Shown: piece by piece, positions 26,340-36,307 of the stretch | Numbering within the stretch: position 1 is the first letter of the stretch | Layout: each line of letters starts with the position of its first letter | Source: Alphaproteobacteria bacterium | Lineage (GTDB): Bacteria; Pseudomonadota; Alphaproteobacteria; UBA828 | DNA: 64,000 nt | Direction: 5' to 3' | Assembly (NCBI GenBank): GCA_965221125.1 | Contig: CBDCRW010000004.1 | Coordinates: 416,001-480,000 of the forward strand | Program-made: the position numbers and the translations under genes | Notes under the pieces: model-generated | Told to the model about the DNA's origin: nothing | The model's database searches: none | Seen by the model: only the letters and a program-made list of their open reading frames with translations

Positions 26340-27296
26340 ATGCGACGGCGGACGGCATTCACCATCGCGGCCGTGTTGACGGCGTGGCTCACCGTGGCGG
26401 CGACAGGCGGCGCCACGGCGCCGGAGCCAGAGGGCTCGGCCCCGCCCAGCGACATGATCGGCCAGATGCGCCACATCGTCGCCGATTACGAGGACACGCT
26501 GCTGGACCTCGCACGCGCCAACGGTCTCGGCTACGTCGAGATGATCGCGGCCAACCGCGGCATCGATCCCTGGGTCCCCGGCAAGAGCACGTCGGTCGTC
26601 CTGCCCACCGCGCACGTGCTCCCCGATGCCGAGCGCGTCGGCCTGGTGGTCAACCTGGCCGAGCACCGCCTCTACTATTTCGGCCCGCCGGGCACGGAGC
26701 CCGTGACCTTTCCCCTAGGCGTCGGCAGGGAGGGGTGGTCGACGCCCCTCGGCACGACCGAGATCGTCCGCAAGAAGGAGGCGCCGAGCTGGTACCCGCC
26801 TGAATCGATCCGCGCCAAGAAGCCGGATCTGCCCAAGGTCGTGCCGCCGGGGCCCCACAATCCCCTCGGCAGTCATGCGCTCTATTTCGACTGGCCAGCC
26901 TACCTGATCCACGGCACCAACCGGCCGTGGGGGATCGGCCGGCGCGTGAGTCACGGCTGCATCCGCCTCTACCCCGAGGACATCGCCCGGCTATACGAGC
27001 TCGTGCCGATCGGCACGCCGGTCCAGGTCATCAGCCAGGCGGTCAAGATCGGCTGGTACGAGGGAGAGCTCTACATCGAGGCGCACCCCGAGTCCGGTCA
27101 GGCGGACGAGCTCGAGAGCACCGGCCAAATAAGGAGCGTCGACGCGCGCTCCCGCGCCGACGCTCTTTACCGGATCACAACTTTGGCAGGTGCCGACCGG
27201 GACCGACTTAACTGGCACCTTATCCGAAAGGCTTTCGAGGAACGGTCGGGCGTCCCCGTCCGCGTCACCCTGGACCGAACCGGGCCCTCGGCCTAG
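26340..27296 (+). CDS. L,D-transpeptidase (ErfK/YbiS/YcfS family)
   Basis: Signal peptide, LysM-like segment, PPGPHNPLG, IHGTN...SHGCIRL catalytic motif. Confidence 0.92.
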   Translation: MRRRTAFTIAAVLTAWLTVAATGGATAPEPEGSAPPSDMIGQMRHIVADYEDTLLDLARANGLGYVEMIAANRGIDPWVPGKSTSVVLPTAHVLPDAERVGLVVNLAEHRLYYFGPPGTEPVTFPLGVGREGWSTPLGTTEIVRKKEAPSWYPPESIRAKKPDLPKVVPPGPHNPLGSHALYFDWPAYLIHGTNRPWGIGRRVSHGCIRLYPEDIARLYELVPIGTPVQVISQAVKIGWYEGELYIEAHPESGQADELESTGQIRSVDARSRADALYRITTLAGADRDRLNWHLIRKAFEERSGVPVRVTLDRTGPSA

Positions 27297-27336
27297 CCCC
27301 GGCCGGGCGGCGCGCGATGGCCGCCCGCCCGAACTG

Positions 27337-27645
27337 CTACTTGCGCATCCCCTTCTGGAAGATGCGGTCCGCCTTGTCCGCGGCCGCCTGCGCTGCCTCG
27401 GCCGCTTCCTGAGCCGCCGCAGCCGCAGCCGCAGCGTTCTGGTTGGCCTCTTCCACCGCCGCTCTCAGCTCGTCGACGGCGACCATCGCGGCGTTGGCGG
27501 TCTGCATGGCTTCCGTCGCCATCGCTTCCGCGCCGGCTATGGCGGCTGCCGTTTGCTCCTGCTCGGCAGCAGATTGGCAACCCGCGGCAACCGCCAGCGG
27601 AAGGGCGACAATCGCAATCCGCAGCGCCCACGATTTGTTGAGCAT
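27337..27645 (-). CDS. Lpp/OprI-like alanine-zipper lipoprotein
   Basis: Lipobox AAGC, Ala-rich coiled coil, C-terminus KADRIFQKGMRK ending in Lys. Confidence 0.78.
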   Translation of the reverse strand: MLNKSWALRIAIVALPLAVAAGCQSAAEQEQTAAAIAGAEAMATEAMQTANAAMVAVDELRAAVEEANQNAAAAAAAAQEAAEAAQAAADKADRIFQKGMRK

Positions 27646-27812
27646 GGCCTCCTCCTGGCTCCAATGGGTCGCTCGGAGTTGACGGCGATTCGCCTAATGG
27701 AGTCAAGGAAATCCCCCGTAATTCTGCCGGATTGCGCCTCGACCTGCGAATTTTCCGCACGCCCCGAGCCTTGTGCTTTACCCAGGCAGGGCGAAGCCCT
27801 TACTCTCGCATT

Positions 27813-28394
27813 ATGGACCCAACGTCTCCGCACCCTTCGGGCGAAGCCGCCGACGGTGGCAGGTCCGGCGCGCCGGCTCTCTTCGATGCGGTGCTGGCGC
27901 CCAACCGCTCGCTCGGGCGCGCCGGCTTCGTTGCGGTCATGGCCGGCGTCATCGTGGTGAGCGTCGGCCTCGGCACCTACTTCCTGCTCCAGGGCGCGTG
28001 GCCGGTGTTCGGCTTCTTCGGCCTCGACATCCTGCTGCTCTATCTCGCCTTCCGGCTGAGCTACCGCTCGGGCCGCCTGCGGGAGACCATACGGGTCACC
28101 GCCGACGAGGTCGTCGTCCGCCGCATCGCGCCCAACGGGCGCGTGACGGAGTGGCGCTTCAACCCCTACTGGCTTCGCGTCGCCCTCGCCGAGCCGGTGG
28201 AGCACGCAAGCCAGATCACGCTCACCTCGCACGGACGTTCCATCGTCGTCGGCCACTTCCTCGCGCCGGAAGAGCGGGCGAGCCTGGTGAAGGCGCTGCG
28301 TGACGCGCTCGGCGAGGCCAACCGGCGCTACGCCGGCGCTCCGCTGGAGCAAGGCGCGCCGGAAGGAGACGCGGCAGCGGCCCGGCGCAGTTAG
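27813..28394 (+). CDS. DUF2244 family membrane protein
   Basis: PNRSL, GAWPVFGFFGLD, FNPYW, GHFLAPEERASL. Confidence 0.88.
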   Translation: MDPTSPHPSGEAADGGRSGAPALFDAVLAPNRSLGRAGFVAVMAGVIVVSVGLGTYFLLQGAWPVFGFFGLDILLLYLAFRLSYRSGRLRETIRVTADEVVVRRIAPNGRVTEWRFNPYWLRVALAEPVEHASQITLTSHGRSIVVGHFLAPEERASLVKALRDALGEANRRYAGAPLEQGAPEGDAAAARRS

Positions 28395-28406
28395 AGCGTT
28401 TCCGTC

Positions 28407-28418
28407 CTACACGGAAAC
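28407..28418 (+). repeat. attL core (12-bp direct repeat CTACACGGAAAC)
   Basis: Identical to 56718-56729; preceded by AGAGCGTTTCCGT, the left arm of the rebuilt palindrome. Confidence 0.85.
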
Positions 28419-28537
28419 ACGCACCTTCGGTGCTAAGCAGCTGATTCGATTGCGATGATCTTCCATTTCTATTGCCACCGGGCGCGGAATTCAAGCCGAT
28501 TCCGCACTCCGCTGCAACAGATCGGAGACGCGCAATC

Positions 28538-29665
28538 ATGCCAACCATCCGCCTCACCCAGCGCAGAGTCGACGCCCTTCGTCCCCGCCGCAAGGTGCGC
28601 GACATCCGGGACGCCGAGCTGAAGGGGTACGGCGTCCGGGTCATGCCCTCCGGCACCCGGCGCTACTTCATCCACAGCCAGCACAGGGGCAAACGAGTTT
28701 GGAAGATCATAGGCGACGCGGCGGCGATCGCCGAGCCCGAGGCGCGGGTCAGGGCCAGGTCGATGCTCGCCGCGTTGCGCGACGGCCGGGAGCCCGATGC
28801 GGCGGACCCCGGCGGCACCCTCTTCGAGACGGTCGCCGAGGAGGTCTTCGACCGCTACGGCCGCCGCTGGAAGCCGCGCACCCTGGACGTAAACCGGGCC
28901 TACCTCCGCCGGCAGATATTGCCCTTCTTCGCGGGCAAGCCCATCGGAGAGATAACCAAGGAGGACGTGCGGGCCTGGTTCCGCTCTCTTCACGCGACGC
29001 CCGCCGCCGCGAACCGCTCGGCACCGATCCTCTCGGTCATCATGCAGCAGGCCGAGGTCTGGGGATACCGCCCGGAGGACAGCAACCCCTGCGCCGGGAT
29101 CCGCCGCTACCGACAGGGACGGTCCGAGCGCTTCCTCACCCCCGAGGAGTATCGCCGCCTCGCCGCAGTGCTGGGCCGGCACGAGGCCGACCGCCCCCTG
29201 CACGTGGCCGCCCTGCGTCTGCTGCTGCTCACCGGGTGCCGCAAGTCGGAGATACTGACCCTTCAATGGCGCTCCTACCGGGAGGGGCGGCTCTATCTGC
29301 CCGACAGCAAAGTCGGCCCACGCACGGTCTGGCTGTGCGAGGCGGCGCGCGATGTTCTCGATAGCATGCCCCGATCCTCCGGATGGATCTTCCCGGTCGC
29401 CGGTCGGCGCACCCCGTGGATGTGGCTGGATTACTTCTGGCGCGGCGTGAGGGAGGAAGCCGGGCTGCAGGATGTCCGCCTGCACGACACCAGACATTCC
29501 TACGCCAGCATGGCACTGCTCTCCGGCGAGAGCGTGCGCACCGTCGGCCGCCTGCTCGGTCACGAGAAGGCGTCGACCACGCTGAAATACGCTCACCTGT
29601 CCGACGCCACGGTCCGCGACGCAGTCGAGACCCTGTCTCCCGTCCTGTCGGGGAACCGGCCATGA
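28538..29665 (+). CDS. Tyrosine recombinase/integrase 1 (with N-terminal arm-binding domain)
   Basis: N-terminal RDAELKGYGVRVMPSG; catalytic TGCRKSE, DSK, LHDTRH, LGH, KYAH. Confidence 0.93.
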   Translation: MPTIRLTQRRVDALRPRRKVRDIRDAELKGYGVRVMPSGTRRYFIHSQHRGKRVWKIIGDAAAIAEPEARVRARSMLAALRDGREPDAADPGGTLFETVAEEVFDRYGRRWKPRTLDVNRAYLRRQILPFFAGKPIGEITKEDVRAWFRSLHATPAAANRSAPILSVIMQQAEVWGYRPEDSNPCAGIRRYRQGRSERFLTPEEYRRLAAVLGRHEADRPLHVAALRLLLLTGCRKSEILTLQWRSYREGRLYLPDSKVGPRTVWLCEAARDVLDSMPRSSGWIFPVAGRRTPWMWLDYFWRGVREEAGLQDVRLHDTRHSYASMALLSGESVRTVGRLLGHEKASTTLKYAHLSDATVRDAVETLSPVLSGNRP

Positions 29666-30849
29666 AGGGGCGGAGGGTCCGGCTGACGGACGCGGGCGTC
29701 GGCAAGTTGAAGCCGCACACGACGGAATACGCGGTCTGGGACAGCGAGGTGCCCGGCCTCGGCGTGCGGGTACGCCCGTCCGGGCATCGCAGCTTCGTCT
29801 GGCACGGGCGCGTCCAGGGAGAGCCGGTCAGGGCGACCCTCGGCCCGGCCGCGCTCATGACCGTCGAGGACGCCCGGAAGGAAGCCCTGGCGCTCCGCTT
29901 GGGAACCGCCCCGCACAAGGCGGAAGGACGTTTCGGCGCTCCCCTGTTCCGCGACTTCGTCCAGAACGAGTGGATGCCGGCGTACCGCGGTCGCTGCGCC
30001 CCGTCGTCCTGCCGGTTCGCCAATCGTGTGCTTGAACGGCAGTTGATCCCCGCCTTCGGCCAACTCCCGCTGGACGCCATCCGGCGGATCGGCGTCGAAC
30101 GCTGGTTCGACGCCTACAGCCGTACCGCGCCGGGCGGAGCAAACAAGGCGCTCGAGATCCTCGGCCAAATCATGAACGCCGCCCTCGCCGCCGGCCATGT
30201 CGGGACCGCTCCCGTGAAGGGCATCGCGAAGAACCCCCGCCCGAAACTCACCCGGTTCCTCTCCGCCGAAGAGATCGAAAGGCTTCACCGCGTCCTTGAT
30301 CGGCTGGTCGGGGAGCGGCCCTCCCGCCGGCAGCAGGCCGACGTCATCCGGCTGCTCCTGCTCACCGGCTGCCGGGTGGGCGAGATCCTCAAGCTCCAAT
30401 GGCCGGAGGTCGACGGCGACCACCTCAATCTCGCCGACACCAAGACCGGGCCGCGCAGGGTCTGGCTGAGCCAGGCCGCGCAGGCCATCCTTGCCCGCCA
30501 GCCGCGTGCCGCAAGCCTCTACGTGTTCCCCTCCCCAAGGCATCCTGACAAGCCACTTTCACACGCACTTCACCTCTGGCGCCGGGCGCGGAAGGAAGCC
30601 GGGCTCGACGACGTTCGCCTGCACGATCTCAGGCATACCGTTGCCAGCCAGGCCGTCGCCCGGGGCGTTCCGCTCTCCACCGTCGCGCGCATGCTCGGCC
30701 ACGCCGACCCCACAATGACCCTGCGATACGCCCATGTCGGCGACCGCGATCTGCAGGCCGCCGCCGAGCGCATCGGAAAGTCCATCGGGGCCGCAATGGC
30801 GGGTGGCGAGGCGCCAACAGCACCATCAGTCCATAGGGTGCACGGTTAG
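29662..30849 (+). CDS. Tyrosine recombinase/integrase 2 (with N-terminal arm-binding domain)
   Basis: ATGA overlap with integrase 1; WDSEVPGLGVRVRPSG; catalytic TGCRVGE, DTK, LHDLRH, LGH, RYAH. Confidence 0.93.
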   Translation: MKGRRVRLTDAGVGKLKPHTTEYAVWDSEVPGLGVRVRPSGHRSFVWHGRVQGEPVRATLGPAALMTVEDARKEALALRLGTAPHKAEGRFGAPLFRDFVQNEWMPAYRGRCAPSSCRFANRVLERQLIPAFGQLPLDAIRRIGVERWFDAYSRTAPGGANKALEILGQIMNAALAAGHVGTAPVKGIAKNPRPKLTRFLSAEEIERLHRVLDRLVGERPSRRQQADVIRLLLLTGCRVGEILKLQWPEVDGDHLNLADTKTGPRRVWLSQAAQAILARQPRAASLYVFPSPRHPDKPLSHALHLWRRARKEAGLDDVRLHDLRHTVASQAVARGVPLSTVARMLGHADPTMTLRYAHVGDRDLQAAAERIGKSIGAAMAGGEAPTAPSVHRVHG

Positions 30850-30880
30850 CAGGCGGGAAATCAGGGTCTCTTCCCAACGT

Positions 30881-30910
30881 GACCCCGGAGGCTGCCATTG
30901 TTCCGGGGTC
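30881..30910. terminator. Strong hairpin downstream of the integrase pair
   Basis: GACCCCGGA (30881-30889) pairs perfectly with TCCGGGGTC (30902-30910); no U-tract. Confidence 0.45.
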
Positions 30911-30936
30911 CCCCAGCTCAGCTTCTCGCAAGCACC

Positions 30937-30966
30937 TTGACCGCCGCCTGATCCCGACTCTACGCT
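30937..30966 (+). promoter_or_regulatory. Candidate sigma70 promoter
   Basis: TTGACC-N18-TACGCT; the predicted start site (~30972-30974) coincides with the 5' end of a long stem. Confidence 0.55.
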
Positions 30967-30973
30967 TACCCCC

Positions 30974-31126
30974 GCTAACGACCACGGGTGCCCGCTCCGT
31001 CGGGTTGCCCGCTGAATACAACAGCCTCTTGACCCGGCCAGGGTCGCTCCTTGGCCCAGGTGAATAGGTGGGGACCTCACACACCCGTGTGTCGTTAGCA
31101 ACGGCCCGGCACCAGCCGGGCTGGCC
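30974..31126 (+). ncRNA. Candidate structured 5' leader / cis-regulatory RNA
   Basis: GCTAACGACCACGGGTG (30974-30990) pairs with CACCCGTGTGTCGTTAGC (31082-31099, one bulge) and encloses several hairpins; a GCCCGGC-ACCA-GCCGGGC hairpin follows, just before the RBS. Confidence 0.5.
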
Positions 31127-32114
31127 TGCAAGGGAGCAAAGATTCATGAACAAGACTATGCTGGCGGTCACCCTCGGCGGTCTCCTTACTCTTTCGGCGT
31201 GTGGTGGCAGCGGTGGCAGCGGTGGCAGCAATACACAACCCGTCACGTCCCTGCCGCCCGCCAATACTCCGACGTTCAACGAAACGCTTGCAGCCGATCC
31301 GACCGCGAACCGAAGTGCCGTAACGCGAGCGGCCACGTCGCTGCCTGCATTCGGGAGTGTCACGCAATCCACAAGCCATAACGTGGCTGGGATATCATCC
31401 GACGCTGCGAGCACCACATTCGATGGGCAGAGACTGATCCTGCGGATTCAGCGCGATGACGCCAGCGCCCTCACCCTGGATACAGCCTCCGACACGCTCG
31501 AGAGTGACGCCCTCGACTCTCTTATTCCCGGGCATGGCGGACGCGGCTGGATTCAGTTGGATGCTAACGCGGCGGGCGCGACGTTAGCCTACACGGGCGT
31601 TTCCTGGTCTAACAGCGATCCCACCGATTACCTGGCGGGCGGCTATTGGCTGCATGCCGCCGGGGACGTCCTCAACGGTTCGGTCACAGGTGTAGAGGTT
31701 GGTGCCTTCGTCGATGGCCCCGAGCTTGATATCGGCAATCCGCCGACCATGCCGATGCAGGGCACTGCCAGCTACAACGGGCTTGCAGAGGGTGTCTATG
31801 CTGGCCGGTATGGCAGCATTGTTCCGGGACAGACCTTGTCGGAAGGGAGCACGGAGACTGGAGTTTGGAGTTCGACCATCGGACTCGCTGCCGACTTCGG
31901 TACCGGCACGATCTCGGGCTGCATCGGGTGTCAGGCTCCCGTCTATGTGACCGGTGTGTACCAAGATGCCGTAATGGGGCTCGGCGCCAATCGGTACCAT
32001 CGGAGCCTGTCCCGATGACGACGAATCGGGTGTCGTTGCCCTTGCACGCTCAGCGTGCTCACGGGGTCTTGCCGGAAGGCGCGCCCCAATCCTTCGAGAG
32101 GAAAGGGCAACGAC

Positions 32115-33158
32115 ATGGCTGTCTATATCGGGCTGGATGTATCGCTGGCAAGCACGACAATCTGCGTGATCGGCGACAAGGGCAAGATCGTGACCGAGGC
32201 TCAGGTCGCCAGCACGCCTGACGCGTTGGTTGCGTTCATGGGCAAGCTGGAGCACGAGATCGCCGTGATCGGTCTTGAGGCCGGTCCCCTGTCCCACTGG
32301 TTGCACAAGGGGCTGACCGACGCCGGCTTCGAGGCCGTCCTTATGGAGACCCGGCGGGTGAAGGCGGCGCTGAAGGCGATGCCGATCAAGACGGATCGCC
32401 GGGATGCCGAGGGCATCGCACGGCTCTTGCAGATGGGCTGGTTCAGGCCGGTGCACTGCAAGTCGGTATCGTCGCAGGAGATGCGCGCACTGCTGACCTC
32501 GCGCAGGTCCGTGAAGGGCGCGCTCACCGATATGGAACTCTCGCTGCGCGGCGTGTTGCGCAACTTTGGCCTGAAGCTGGGCCAGGTCTCGAAGGGCCGC
32601 TGGGAGGCCCGCGTCCGGGAGTTGATCGCAGGCAACGCGATGCTGGAGGCCGCCGCCGAACCGATCCTGCGCGCGCGGGTGGCTCTGCGCCGCGAGCTGG
32701 CCGGCCTGGAGAAGCTGGTCCGCGATCTGGCCAGGGAGGATCCGGTATGCCGGCTGCTGATGACCATGCCCGGCGTAGGCGCGGTCGTGGCCCTGACCTT
32801 CAAATCGGCGATTGACGATCCCGGGCGGTTCCGGAGATCGAAGGATGTCGGCCCCTGGGTGGGACTGACGCCGGGCCGGGACCAATCCGGCGAGCGAGAT
32901 ATTGTCGGCGGCATCACGAAGTGCGGCGACGCAGGTCTGCGTACCGCGCTCTATCAGGCCGCCACGGTGATGCTGAACGGCACCGCCGGGCCGAACTGGC
33001 TGAAGGCCTGGGCGCTTCGTCTGGCGAAGCTCCGTGGCAAGAAGCGTGCGACCGTCGCCCTGGCCCGGCGCATCGGCGTGGTACTTCACCGGATGTGGCG
33101 GGACGGCACCGAGTTCCGCTTCACGCGCGAGGAGGCGATGGCGCTCCAGACGGCATAG
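32115..33158 (+). CDS. IS110 family transposase/recombinase (DEDD RuvC-like + Tnp20 domain)
   Basis: YIGLDVS, IGLEAG, KTDRRDAEGIA, MPGVG, GLTPGRDQSGE (catalytic Ser), GITKCG, VALARR. Confidence 0.96.
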   Translation: MAVYIGLDVSLASTTICVIGDKGKIVTEAQVASTPDALVAFMGKLEHEIAVIGLEAGPLSHWLHKGLTDAGFEAVLMETRRVKAALKAMPIKTDRRDAEGIARLLQMGWFRPVHCKSVSSQEMRALLTSRRSVKGALTDMELSLRGVLRNFGLKLGQVSKGRWEARVRELIAGNAMLEAAAEPILRARVALRRELAGLEKLVRDLAREDPVCRLLMTMPGVGAVVALTFKSAIDDPGRFRRSKDVGPWVGLTPGRDQSGERDIVGGITKCGDAGLRTALYQAATVMLNGTAGPNWLKAWALRLAKLRGKKRATVALARRIGVVLHRMWRDGTEFRFTREEAMALQTA

Positions 33159-33229
33159 GCGCGGCTGCATCCCACCGGCAATCGGAAGCGAGAGGAGGAA
33201 AGAGCCGCGCCTGAAGGTGGCGATCCACC

Positions 33230-33410
33230 GGTGTCCCCTCGCCGGGACGCGGTTCCCGTTGATGCACGCGCTGCGTCTTGTCGGCCGAACCGTTTCATCG
33301 CGTTCGAGCACGCGACCAAGATCGGCACTCGGGAATCGTTTGGACCAGGCATGACGTTGGCAGCCGCTGCGCTGACCACGGACGGAAGCGAGAGCCTGGC
33401 GACGGACACA
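33230..33410 (+). ncRNA. Candidate bridge/seek RNA of the IS110 element (ends approximate)
   Basis: Two stem-bounded internal loops; one contains matches to the target (33269-33280, 33315-33322), the other to the donor junction (33348-33352, 33382-33388). Confidence 0.7.
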
Positions 33411-34053
33411 TCCGGGAATCCCGCTTCCTTCTTTGCCGCGCAGACGAGTCAGTTAGCCGCTCCCGCCATGGCAATCCGCTATGTTGACCGCGCCTGTGAT
33501 TCGATTTGCAACAGGCTACGGTGCTTCATGTGCGAGCCACCGTGCCAGGCCGGAAGATCGTGAAGATCGGTGTTTGACATCAACCGCCCCATTACGGAAG
33601 ATGCGGCGACGGGGGAGGTCGGTGATTTTGCCGACGTAGCGACCGCTTATCGGGTTCACCTGGGCGCAGCGTCGTTTGATCCGAATGGAACCTTCCGCAG
33701 TCAGGATGTGAGCATGAGTCTTGGCGGAGTGCCGTTGAGCGGGGGCGGCGCATGGGGAGGCCAGTTCTCCAACATCCCCGACGGCGACGGCGATCCACGT
33801 CTTGTTGCCGGAACTGCTGGCGGTGAATTCACCACGCCTGTCGGCGGCGAGGGCGCATTCATCGGCGCCTATTACGGCACTACGGAATAATGCAGCGGCT
33901 TGAAGAGTCTGGGAACTTAAGGTCGGAGGCCAAGCACTAGGCGGGGCGAGTTGCGCTGATGGACAGTGGGTCGCATGGCCATGAGAGCCATGCCGTCCCC
34001 CAAAATCCTGAACGGCGGTCTGACCTCCTCGTGCGGGAGGATCAGGCCGTAGA

Positions 34054-35058
34054 GGGTCTATCCCCGCGCGGGCGGGGGAGCCGCAATCCGCCCCGTATTC
34101 CACGCGCCCCAGGAGGGTCTATCCCCGCGCGGGCGGGGGAGCCGGATCGGGGGCGGACAAGAGCCTGGCGATCAAGGGTCTATCCCCGCGCGGGCGGGGG
34201 AGCCACGTAGTTTCGGAACTCGCCGTCGCCAGTGGCGGGTCTATCCCCGCGCGGGCGGGGGAGCCTTCCTGCAGCTCTTCGGCTCGGCGGCCGAGTGGGG
34301 TCTATCCCCGCGCGGGCGGGGGAGCCTCCGCCAGCTCAGCCACCAGGCTATACGCCTCGGGTCTATCCCCGCGCGGGCGGGGGAGCCACGATGTACGGGC
34401 GCTGGCGGGCATATCGCCAGGGTCTATCCCCGCGCGGGCGGGGGAGCCGTCTCGCCGGGGATGTAAGGTTCGCCGCGATAGGGTCTATCCCCGCGCGGGC
34501 GGGGGAGCCAAATCACTACGAAACAGCCTCACCGTAATGTTGGGTCTATCCCCGCGCGGGCGGGGGAGCCACGACCGGGGCGGTGGTCCCGACATCGGTG
34601 GCGGGTCTATCCCCGCGCGGGCGGGGGAGCCATCGGACGATACAGGAGCAGGCCGTTCTTCTCGGGTCTATCCCCGCGCGGGCGGGGGAGCCGCGTAGGC
34701 CACACTGATGTTGGTCAGTGGGCGGGGTCTATCCCCGCGCGGGCGGGGGAGCCAATTCGTGGTGCGAACCCTGGTGTCTGATCTGGGGTCTATCCCCGCG
34801 CGGGCGGGGGAGCCGGTTGAGACCGGCGTTCGCGAATGCATCCGCCGGGTCTATCCCCGCGCGGGCGGGGGAGCCGCCTCCTTACCAAGATCAGCACCAA
34901 TTGGATTGGGTCTATCCCCGCGCGGGCGGGGGAGCCGTAAGCAAATCCGTCCACTTCAACGTAAGCCGGGGTCTATCCCCGCGCGGGCGGGGGAGCCAGG
35001 TCGATGGCGTACTCAAGACCGCCCTCGCCGGGTCTATCCCCGCGCGGGCGGGGGAGCC
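34054..35058 (-). CRISPR. Type I-E CRISPR array, 17 repeats and 16 spacers
   Basis: 29-bp repeat GGGTCTATCCCCGCGCGGGCGGGGGAGCC (+ strand) at an exact 61-bp period with 32-bp unique spacers; leader on the cas2 side implies minus-strand transcription. Confidence 0.98.
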
Positions 35059-35100
35059 TCTAGCGATCAACACTTTGATGTATTTACGATGTCAAAGAGC
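35059..35100 (-). promoter_or_regulatory. CRISPR leader with IHF-like site
   Basis: AT-rich; minus strand reads GCTCTTTGACATCGTAAATACATCAAAGTGTTGATCGCTAGA and contains ATCAA-N4-TTG; overlaps the cas2 stop codon. Confidence 0.7.
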
Positions 35101-35415
35101 AGTGGGCGATGTACGCGAATCCCCTTGCCGTTTTACGAGAAGGACACCGTCTGCGTCCACGATCTCTTTGGGAGGCGCGCCGAGCGTCCGTATGCGGAGA
35201 TTTCCGACGGCTTGCGTGTCCCTCCATACCAGGACGATCGATCCTGTGCGCAGTGCCGACCACCATGCCGACAGCACGTCCCACACCCGTGTCCGCACGC
35301 CCGCCGACAGGTCGGGCGCCACGTAGACTCCGGGTGCAACTTCAAGCATGACGGAGGTCAGAAAGCCGCGATAGCGAGGTTCCACGTTACGGGTGACGAC
35401 CATTGCCATGGGCAT
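35092..35415 (-). CDS. cas2: Type I-E CRISPR-associated Cas2
   Basis: VVTRNVEPRYRGFL...MLEVAPGVYV...VRTRVW...DADGVLL. Confidence 0.93.
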   Translation of the reverse strand: MPMAMVVTRNVEPRYRGFLTSVMLEVAPGVYVAPDLSAGVRTRVWDVLSAWWSALRTGSIVLVWRDTQAVGNLRIRTLGAPPKEIVDADGVLLVKRQGDSRTSPTAL

Positions 35416-35422
35416 CGTCCGA

Positions 35423-36307
35423 TCACTCCTCCCCGGAGGGGTCCTCGAAAAGAGATTTTATTCGCTCGATCATCGCTGGGATCACATGTTCGCGTGCCAA
35501 TGTTTCCCCCGTCAGCCGGCGGGCAAGCCGCTCGATGTTTTCATCCGGGCGTTCAGTGATCCGCTTGGCGGCACGGAAAGCGGAGGGAATGGTAATGCTG
35601 TCGCGATGAAGGTCAGCGATGTCCAGAACGAACGACTGCCCCGGATCCTCGTGGATGAAGCCGAGTTGCGGGATCGTCGCGGTAGCGGCGACGGCGATGG
35701 CGGCGGCGCCCTCGACCGCGCTCGATGCGTGGTTGAGGGCCTGATTGGGAAAGTCCGCCGCTCCCGGGTCAGCGCGATCATAGCGGCGTCCACGCCACTC
35801 GATCCGGGCTCGCTGGGCGTGCAAGCGATAACTCTCCTTCATTCGCGCGCCCTCGATGCCGCGCAGAACGTCCAGCGAGCGATGCGGCAATATTTCGCCC
35901 AGTCGCCAGGCATACATGCGACGGGCGACGGCAATACGTTCGGCGTCGTCGGCCCATAGCCGCGCTTGCCGCCGCGCCAGGCCGGAGCGGTCGGGAATCA
36001 GCGGCGGGGCGGTGTAGAGACGAACCCCATCCTCTCCCACCGCCGCGAGCCCGGTGCGCGCGTAGGCAAGTAGACGCAACGCGTCATGGCTGACCGTGGA
36101 GCCGGGGCCGAGCAAAATCATCGATACCCCCTGAAGCGGGATCGCGTAATCCCCGGGCCCGAGCGCGTCCGCCGCGGTCGCTTGCCCTTGCAGGAAGGCG
36201 AGCGTGCCGTCTCGGGCTGTCAACGCGCCGCGCGCAAGATAGAGCAACCCGGCCCGATCCCTGTGCGGGACCTTGGCGCTGTCGAGTCCAAGCCGGCCCT
36301 TCAGCAT
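35423..36307 (-). CDS. cas1: Type I-E CRISPR-associated Cas1
   Basis: LLGPGSTVSHDAL, LRGIEGARMK, NQALN, LGFIH, SFVLDIADL. Confidence 0.96.
   Translation of the reverse strand: MLKGRLGLDSAKVPHRDRAGLLYLARGALTARDGTLAFLQGQATAADALGPGDYAIPLQGVSMILLGPGSTVSHDALRLLAYARTGLAAVGEDGVRLYTAPPLIPDRSGLARRQARLWADDAERIAVARRMYAWRLGEILPHRSLDVLRGIEGARMKESYRLHAQRARIEWRGRRYDRADPGAADFPNQALNHASSAVEGAAAIAVAATATIPQLGFIHEDPGQSFVLDIADLHRDSITIPSAFRAAKRITERPDENIERLARRLTGETLAREHVIPAMIERIKSLFEDPSGEE

Follow-up and report, generated by a model that had tools for sequence, protein, structure and literature searches.

An IS1111-group insertion sequence of an alphaproteobacterium whose 3' end very probably encodes a two-loop guide RNA

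Results

The element and its transposase

The window analysed here, a stretch of 64,000 nucleotides (nt) from the genome of an alphaproteobacterium of the UBA828 lineage (assembly GCA_965221125.1, contig CBDCRW010000004.1, positions 416,001 to 480,000), carries an IS1111-type insertion sequence (IS) on its forward strand at 31966-33598. Positions given without a contig label are those of the window. We conclude that this is very probably an intact IS1111-group element whose 3' end encodes a two-loop guide RNA (a bridge RNA, or 'long seekRNA'), an interpretation that an earlier note had drawn from the window sequence and that the present analysis supports. The conclusion is carried by the anatomy of the 3' end, by the site specificity of six out of six genomic copies, by the exact boundaries of the element, and by the covariation found among homologues in the RNA scaffold, between guides and targets, and between guides and donor ends.

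The element measures 1633 bp, or 1635 bp with one copy of its core, and its features are collected in Table 1. Non-coding ends of 149 nt (5', 31966-32114) and 440 nt (3', 33159-33598) enclose the transposase gene, and beyond the subterminal repeats lie short terminal extensions, ATG at the left end and A at the right. The protein matches Pfam PF01548 (DEDD_Tnp_IS110; 2.6e-16, residues 4-149) and PF02371 (Transposase_20; 6.8e-22, residues 211-286) and is homologous to the structurally solved transposases of IS621 (8wt6, E 3.8e-13) and ISCro4, with which its YIGxD, E, KTDxxDA and GLTPxxxxSG motifs align. A DEDD RuvC-like domain is joined to a C-terminal domain containing GLTPGRDQSG, aligned to GLTPRRYESG of IS621. 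Judged by these comparisons, the protein is an IS110-family DEDD transposase. Both Pfam domains, site-specific insertion and the lack of duplication past the core agree with the IS110 family. Descriptions of the IS1111 group in PMC11187229 and PMC11208160 name subterminal repeats of 7-17 bp, short terminal extensions and a transposase of 330-350 amino acids as hallmarks; here we find 12-bp subterminal repeats, a downstream non-coding region and a transposase within that size range with the signature GL-P----S(T)G. Together with the unequal ends (149 versus 440 nt) and an RNA whose top-strand match lies 5' of its bottom-strand match, these features bear out the IS1111-type architecture that had been proposed. 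Matches in a plasmid search were labelled just 'IS110 family transposase', and none carried an element name.

Table 1. Features of the element and its guide RNA (window positions; LT and RT, left and right target halves; RD, right donor half)
Feature	Position	Strand	Evidence or remark
LT	ends 31963	+	TACCA in the window copy, GACCA in the other five copies
AG core, left copy	31964-31965	+	left junctions of 6 genomic copies and 62 homologues
Insertion sequence proper	31966-33598	+	copy comparison and two empty paralogous sites
RD, ATGCC, first 5 nt of left end	31966-31970	+	partner of donor guide GGCAU
Left subterminal inverted repeat, CCGTAATGGGGC	31969-31980	+	perfect 12-bp inverted match to 33586-33597
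Transposase/recombinase gene, 347 amino acids	32115-33158 (ATG at 32115)	+	Pfam and structure homology
5-bp hairpin GUCCC/GGGAC, directly 5' of target module	33233-33248	+	helix 1, 98.8% of cells paired
Target-binding module, ~91 nt	33249-33339	+	helices 2 and 3
Stem arms GGTTCCCG / CGGGAATC	33251-33258 / 33330-33337	+	string check
12-mer CGCTGCGTCTTG, antisense to target top strand	33269-33280	+	string check
Right target guide	33270-33280	+	flanks of 6 copies and homologue covariation
Left target guide, GACCA-AG-AU	33314-33322	+	GACCA fits 5 of 6 copies
Left target guide match, ACCAAGAT	33315-33322	+	string check
Donor-binding module	33340-33399	+	helix 5; closing-helix comparison
CCAGGC / GCCTGG	33345-33350 / 33394-33399	+	string check
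Right donor guide, GGCAU	33348-33352	+	complementary to top strand of ATGCC, left end
Left donor guide, ACGGA, with AG core	33382-33388	+	right-end sense; pairs with bottom strand
TTGACA, candidate -35 box of outward/junction promoter	33574-33579	+	conserved right ends
Right subterminal inverted repeat, GCCCCATTACGG	33586-33597	+	perfect 12-bp inverted match to 31969-31980
AG core, right copy	33599-33600	+	junctions of copies and homologues
RT	from 33601	+	ATGCGGC in the window copy, ideal ACGCAGC

Genomic copies, boundaries and core

We scanned the source genome (7 contigs, 4.58 Mb) and found six full copies of the element (98-100% identity) and one 258-nt left-end fragment. Four copies lie 0-2 substitutions from that in the window. 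The transposase open reading frame (ORF) is intact in five of the six, these five differ by 0-3 substitutions among themselves over 1635 bp, and all six agree completely over their last 460 nt. The remaining copy (L006, G000:C5:718286-719941) has ~21 extra nt and clustered substitutions at element positions 269-306, and its ORF is cut to 57 amino acids. The lone fragment (L007, G000:C6 ~220871-221126) ends at about position 262 of the element, near the indel site of L006.

A scan of species-representative genomes supplied the homologues: 80 of 479 relatives were kept, most of them alphaproteobacterial, and their transposases are 69-95% identical. Of 87 loci, 63 had two recognisable ends; from these, L084 was dropped for a mis-called right end, leaving 62; the other 24 loci, which lack a recognisable end pair, are truncated contigs or have divergent ends. 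The left junction reads LT-AG-ATGCC in all six genomic copies. Across the 62 elements with both ends found, every left junction reads LT-AG-AT(G/A) and every right junction GA-AG-RT, so the shared core is AG. The gene into which copy L003 inserted has two paralogues without an insertion; both hold LT-AG-RT contiguously, and the alignments of the left and right flanks to them, each including AG, overlap by exactly 2 nt; insertion therefore occurred without duplication beyond the shared AG. The earlier note had rebuilt the target and the circle junction correctly as sequences but had taken AAGATG for a 6-bp core or duplication, which does not stand: the string consists of the last LT base, the AG core and the ATG of the element. 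The core is masked in the window copy because its RT also begins with ATG.

The insertion splits a lipoprotein-like ORF beginning at 31068 and continuing in frame from 33601 (31068-31965 and 33601-33890), with a lipoprotein-like N-terminus (…LSACGGSGGSGGS…) and no match to a Pfam family. A search of 40 related genomes for an intact orthologue gave partial matches that were weak, spanning no more than 154 nt at 71-85% identity, and none of these genomes yielded an empty site for the window copy.

Insertion sites

All six copies occupy sites like GACCA-AG-ACGCAGC. Their left flanks share ACCA-AG, extended to GACCA-AG in five, and their right flanks read ATGCGGC (window), ACGCGCT, ACGCCGC, ACGCAGT, GCGCAGC and ACGCAGC; the flanks are otherwise unrelated. 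The copies thus lie at related and not at random sites, in keeping with the target that had been proposed. When the six right halves (RT1-7) are set against the guide segment 33270-33276, 34 of the 42 positions are Watson-Crick pairs, 6 are wobbles and 2 are mismatches; that is, six of the eight deviations in the right half are wobble-compatible with the guide. The site of the window copy is itself off-consensus, with T for G at LT-5 (its one LT mismatch) and two RT wobbles. This agrees with the earlier description of a natural target containing wobbles, since the 12-mer pairs with the top strand with exactly two (rG:dT and rU:dG).

The best sites (one with 7/7 pairs, one with 6/7 and a wobble) fall within two paralogous HU-like genes, where they occupy codons 3-4 of the HU fold. 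These HU/IHF-like genes (Bac_DNA_binding, E 4.3e-11), both disrupted, hold copies L004 and L006 (G000:C5 ~55460 and ~718285). Their flanks are 78% identical while the elements are 98% identical; we therefore regard them as independent insertions. In contigs assembled from another study's RNA libraries, the right end of the element leads into A-CGCAGC of a diverged HU-like gene, again with a 7/7 guide match, and one such contig also has the matching left flank.

Anatomy of the guide RNA and its conserved scaffold

Every string quoted in the earlier note was found where it had been placed. The 5' hairpin shows no double changes among the homologues, its support being conservation. The target module is bounded by outer helices (33249-33258/33330-33339 and 33261-33265/33325-33328) and has an inner hairpin (33284-33289/33303-33309); both target guides lie in its internal loop. 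Within the right target guide, 33270-33276 faces RT1-7 (ACGCAGC) on the top strand, 33277-33278 faces AG, and 33279-33280 faces the final two bases of LT. Reverse-complemented, 33270-33280 gives CA-AG-ACGCAGC, and 33314-33320 reads GACCA-AG; both RNA segments therefore spell the consensus site. The left target guide has LT sense, so it pairs with the bottom strand, and its final AU equals the first two left-end bases of the element. The donor module has an inner hairpin at 33356-33364/33371-33379. Both modules place the top-strand guide 5' of the bottom-strand guide, and the matches overlap at the insertion point; this is the order that PMC11187229 describes for IS1111 seekRNAs.

Taken on their own, the guide matches in the window sequence are only suggestive. 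When the 440-nt end was shuffled 500 times by mononucleotides, 65 of the shuffled sequences contained an 8-nt sense match to the rebuilt target, 9 contained a 12-nt antisense match with wobbles allowed, and a single one contained both. The deciding support comes from the other five genomic copies and from the homologues, not from the single sequence.

The homologues provide 34 distinct 3' ends, 32 of which were aligned (L050 and L058, near-identical to L034 and L056, were left out). The alignment shows a strongly conserved scaffold broken by four short variable segments, and these are the four guide candidates of the earlier note. We tested a structure taken from RNAalifold, plus one helix and minus three features for which we saw no rationale. 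The three that were dropped are a long-range 3-bp helix (columns 76-78/246-248), a lone pair (204/214) and a second 3-bp helix (293-295/306-308).

Over the 32 sequences, 98.5% of the scaffold cells are paired and 12 of the 35 pairs have changed on both sides. None of 500 shuffles attained any of the five scaffold measures, and slid partners were 28-40% paired. Helices 2 and 3 are paired in 98.2% and 97.3% of cells, with two-sided changes in 5 and 4 pairs; helix 5 is paired in 99.6%, with one pair changed on both sides in 13 sequences. Comparative sequence analysis thus confirms an RNA secondary structure that is conserved with compensatory changes. The stem of GGTTCCCG and CGGGAATC seen in the window proves to be part of conserved helix 2. 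The second proposed stem, CCAGGC/GCCUGG, stands in part: of its six pairs, four persist in 29-31 of 32 sequences but two in just 15 and 13, and it overlaps the donor guide. An alternative 4-bp closing helix (33340-33343/33396-33399) is paired in 31-32 of 32.

Covariation of guides with targets and donor ends

For the target halves we scored the uninterrupted exact run anchored at the core, a deliberately strict measure; L073, L086 and L087 were omitted for short flanks and L053 as a duplicate. Runs of at least 4 nt were found on the LT side in 28 of 58 cognate pairs versus 18 of 1722 non-cognate pairs, and on the RT side in 20 of 58 versus 6 of 1722. The target guides thus fit their cognate flanks far more often than others, which upholds the guide-target covariation that would be expected of a guide RNA. 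A tally of the per-family output gives 25 of 31 families with LT runs of at least 4 or RT runs of at least 5. Among the poorly scoring families, L016, L058 and L067 have right flanks made of internal element sequence, and L030 scores poorly because its guide lacks the AG anchor that the score requires. AGAT forms the end of the left target guide in 32 of the 34 distinct elements, the exceptions being L028 (AGAA) and L056 (AGAC).

The donor guides vary together with the ends of the elements. Against RD, the GGCAU guide is fully Watson-Crick paired in 28 of 34 elements, has a single wobble in 4 and is mismatched in 2. The ACGGA guide fully matches the last five right-end bases (the left donor half, LD) in 33 of 34, the remaining one having a G:T wobble. 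Ten elements have a variant RD; the guide change is exact in six, wobble-compatible in three, and in one there is a mismatch elsewhere. Seven have a variant LD, with the identical guide change in six and a G:T wobble in one. Thus the RD variants ATACC, ATGTC and ATGCT are paired with guides GGUAU, GACAU and AGCAU, and the LD variants ACAGA, ACGAA and ACCGA are mirrored by the same changes in the guide. The donor guides that had been proposed in the second loop (GGCAT and ACGGAAG) accordingly change along with the element ends.

Partial tandem copies

We note that 18 of 59 homologue insertions, representing 6 of the 34 distinct 3' ends, consist of a full element with a partial second copy directly behind it. 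All 18 partial copies start right past an internal AG, at many internal positions, and mostly reach the right end. The elements concerned are L016, L034-L051, L054, L058 and L067, and one Kordiimonas metagenome-assembled genome accounts for 14 of the 18. A related feature occurs in the source genome, where the left flank of L004 (G000:C5:55317-55460) contains an exact ~71-bp tandem duplication adjoining the element; each unit begins just past AG and ends in GACCA-AG. At L004, a different repeat breaks the gene remnant a second time, 16 nt downstream; that repeat is found with 99% identity at no fewer than five other places. By analogy with IS621, for which half-site reactions are described in a 2026 preprint (10.64898/2026.08.31.748434), the partial tandem copies and the L004 duplication look like half-site recombinase reactions at AG. 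They may instead have arisen by self-insertion followed by homologous recombination.

Expression and the candidate junction promoter

Three metatranscriptomic libraries from two studies yield contigs that span 33209-33601 and most of the element; these contigs do not show strand, ends or level, and carry-over of DNA is possible. One such contig (run X16) lacks 33158-33218, the 61 nt between the stop codon and the guide RNA, with a junction that is ambiguous by 4 nt; it could be a deletion variant or a processing product. No precisely excised site appears in the assembled contigs, which says nothing about its absence. Near the right end, CTTGAC/ATTGAC aligns in 33 of 34 right ends, and L024 has the same motif in a shifted position. 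A circle junction would put GAAGAT 17 nt downstream of TTGACA. We infer that TTGACA is a junction-promoter element, taking as a model the Pjunc promoter of ISEc11, as cited in PMC11187229.

Neighbourhood of the element

Upstream of the element lies an ORF of 488 amino acids (29383-30849, forward strand) with the C-terminal motifs …HDLRHT… and …LGHADPTMTLRYAHV…; by eye it looks like a tyrosine recombinase/integrase. A tRNA gene search of 27000-36000 found none. About 580 nt downstream of the element there is an array (34176-34754) of 9.5 copies with a 61-nt period. Its unit contains a ~29-nt GC-rich palindromic repeat, which we take to resemble a type I-E CRISPR repeat.

Discussion

Proposed mechanism

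We suggest that the element makes a guide RNA of ~170 nt (~33233-33400) composed of a target module and a donor module. In the target module, 33270-33280 would pair with the top strand of RT, AG and two LT bases, and 33314-33320 with the bottom strand of LT and the core, so that the two jointly specify GACCA-AG-ACGCAGC. In the donor module, GGCAU would bind the top strand where the element begins (its first five bases, ATGCC) and ACGGA-AG the bottom strand where it ends (its last five bases plus the core), so that the two jointly recognise the circle junction ACGGA-AG-ATGCC. The DEDD recombinase with its RNA would then exchange strands at AG and insert the circular element without duplication past the core. 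Our reading borrows from the family the assumptions that the RNA is produced and bound and that there is a circular intermediate, as well as the proposal that TTGACA-N17-GAAGAT across the junction drives the gene and the RNA as one transcript that is then processed. The AU that follows the left target guide (33321-33322) is likely a handshake dinucleotide that pairs after exchange, by analogy with the handshake guides described for IS621 in PMC13626964.

Several observations weigh against this reading. The fold of the single sequence is no stabler than that of its shuffles (z 0.28), of which 121 out of 200 reach equal stability, its minimum-energy structure did not reproduce the conserved one, and a scan of 31800-33800 against Rfam matched no family (E up to 1). 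Which helix closes the donor module is ambiguous, with no convincing double compensatory change. Both donor guides are short, one of 5 nt and the other of 5 nt plus the core; most homologues have the same ends, and the donor covariation amounts to ~3-4 independent events per side, because related elements are not independent. Six of the 31 families match their targets poorly. A generic scan inside the element called no sigma-70-like promoter and no intrinsic terminator. The RNA-library evidence consists of contigs assembled from four runs, in which DNA contamination is possible, and the assembled contigs contain no circle junction, which says nothing about its absence.

Alternative explanations

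A challenge to the donor half of the proposal is that the first module alone selects the target, the second has a structural or processing role, and the protein finds the ends by way of the subterminal repeats, so that GGCAU and ACGGAAG match the ends without guiding anything. For ISEc11, PMC11187229 reports that an 82-nt short seekRNA alone supported transposition, and better than the long form, whose role its account leaves open; the shortness of the donor matches (5 nt; 5 nt plus 2) and the ambiguous closing helix of the second module point the same way. Yet the donor guides track the ends of the elements where these vary, exactly or by wobble in all cases but one, and it is hard to explain why a purely structural loop would follow the terminal 5 nt on both sides. 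Donor-complementary loops are moreover reported in IS1111 members in the account of Durrant et al. (PMC11208160). We consider a target-only RNA quite unlikely. Far less probable still, to the point that we give it very little credence, is that the 3' end is a DNA-level feature, either protein sites or a short ORF (33231-33563, 110 amino acids), with matches that are coincidental or remnants of old junctions. Such a view would draw on the frequency with which the 8-nt sense match arises by chance in a single sequence, on the unremarkable stability of the fold and on the overlap of the 110-residue ORF with the RNA region. It fails to account for six out of six insertion sites that fit the guides, for cognate matches far in excess of non-cognate ones, or for compensatory changes in 12 helix pairs. 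The ORF belongs to no Pfam family, and the homologue alignment has 1-2-nt gaps within it, so it is incompatible with conserved coding.

It might also be that the bridge-RNA element is genuine and no longer mobile, its copies being relics of duplication or homologous recombination. One of the six transposase genes is broken, the left-end fragment is a remnant of 258 nt, and the assembled contigs lack a circle junction, all of which would suit an immobile element. We nevertheless regard it as unlikely: the intact copies are near-identical and the flanks of the six otherwise unrelated, and such copies together with HU-like gene flanks that are just 78% identical argue for recent independent insertions. 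In the end, we favour an intact element guided by a two-loop RNA. More tentatively, and at somewhat less than an even chance, we propose that the second module is a true donor loop, that the RT wobbles (rG:dT and rU:dG) are tolerated, and that half-site reactions occur naturally.

Significance

Systems of this kind have already been described (Durrant et al. 2024; Siddiquee et al. 2024), and no new mechanism is claimed. What is new is this member, its target, its AG core, a natural record of wobbles, and donor-loop covariation in its clade; ISfinder or the supplementary tables of those studies may already list the element, or one closely related, with a predicted RNA. It adds a natural example to the RNA-guided recombinases under development for genome writing. 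The enzyme is compact (347 amino acids, with a guide RNA of ~170 nt), and its target code GACCA-AG-ACGCAGC and donor code ACGGA-AG-ATGCC are directly readable. Six natural sites display the mismatches and wobbles that are tolerated, and ~30 related elements have been naturally reprogrammed. Insertions of the element explain why the lipoprotein-like gene of the window and, elsewhere in the genome, two HU-like genes are disrupted.

Comparison with known systems

ISPpu9 of Pseudomonas putida, as described by Pares-Guillen et al. 2025 (PMC12288879), is likewise an IS110-family element with a small-RNA gene downstream of the transposase gene. The copies of its RNA module that this description reports apart from full elements recall the full-plus-partial tandem copies among our homologues. 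Unlike ISPpu9, to which we liken it by description, the window element has no partial 3' copies in its own genome.

In the account of Durrant et al. 2024 (PMC11208160; structures 8WT6-8WT9), IS621 has a bispecific RNA with a target loop and a donor loop, one guide for each strand in each loop, a dinucleotide core flanked by the guides, a total target of ~14 bp and, next to a guide, a dinucleotide able to pair after exchange; the window element would agree in all of these, and its recombinase is homologous. The same source predicts an RNA in the right end of 93% of IS1111 elements. Set against the IS621 described there, the window element has its RNA 3' of the gene, a reversed order of strand matches, 12-bp subterminal repeats, and a right donor guide that does not span the core. 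The cores differ as well. That of IS621 is CT, and that of the window element AG.

Close counterparts are also the four IS1111-family seekRNA elements ISEc11, ISPa11, ISKpn4 and ISPst6 (Siddiquee et al. 2024, PMC11187229). The window element is distantly related to these, and we liken it to them, from its sequence alone, on the strength of their published description. It shares with them a DEDD transposase of ~340 amino acids with GL-P----SG, subterminal repeats with short extensions, a long downstream non-coding region with no evident internal promoter, and a top-strand match that precedes the bottom-strand match and overlaps it at the insertion point. Short RNAs of 82-96 nt and long ones of 148-172 nt are given in PMC11187229 and in Table 1 of PMC13604230, and the modules of the window, ~91 nt for the first and ~170 nt for both, fit these sizes. 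Unlike the targets described for those elements, which include repetitive extragenic palindromic (REP) sequences, attC sites and others, the target here is GACCA-AG-ACGCAGC, matched best at the starts of HU-like genes. The role of the second module is left open in the description of those four elements, whereas in the window element it can be read as a covarying donor loop. If that reading is true, a donor-loop role of the second module would reconcile the seekRNA and bridge-RNA descriptions.

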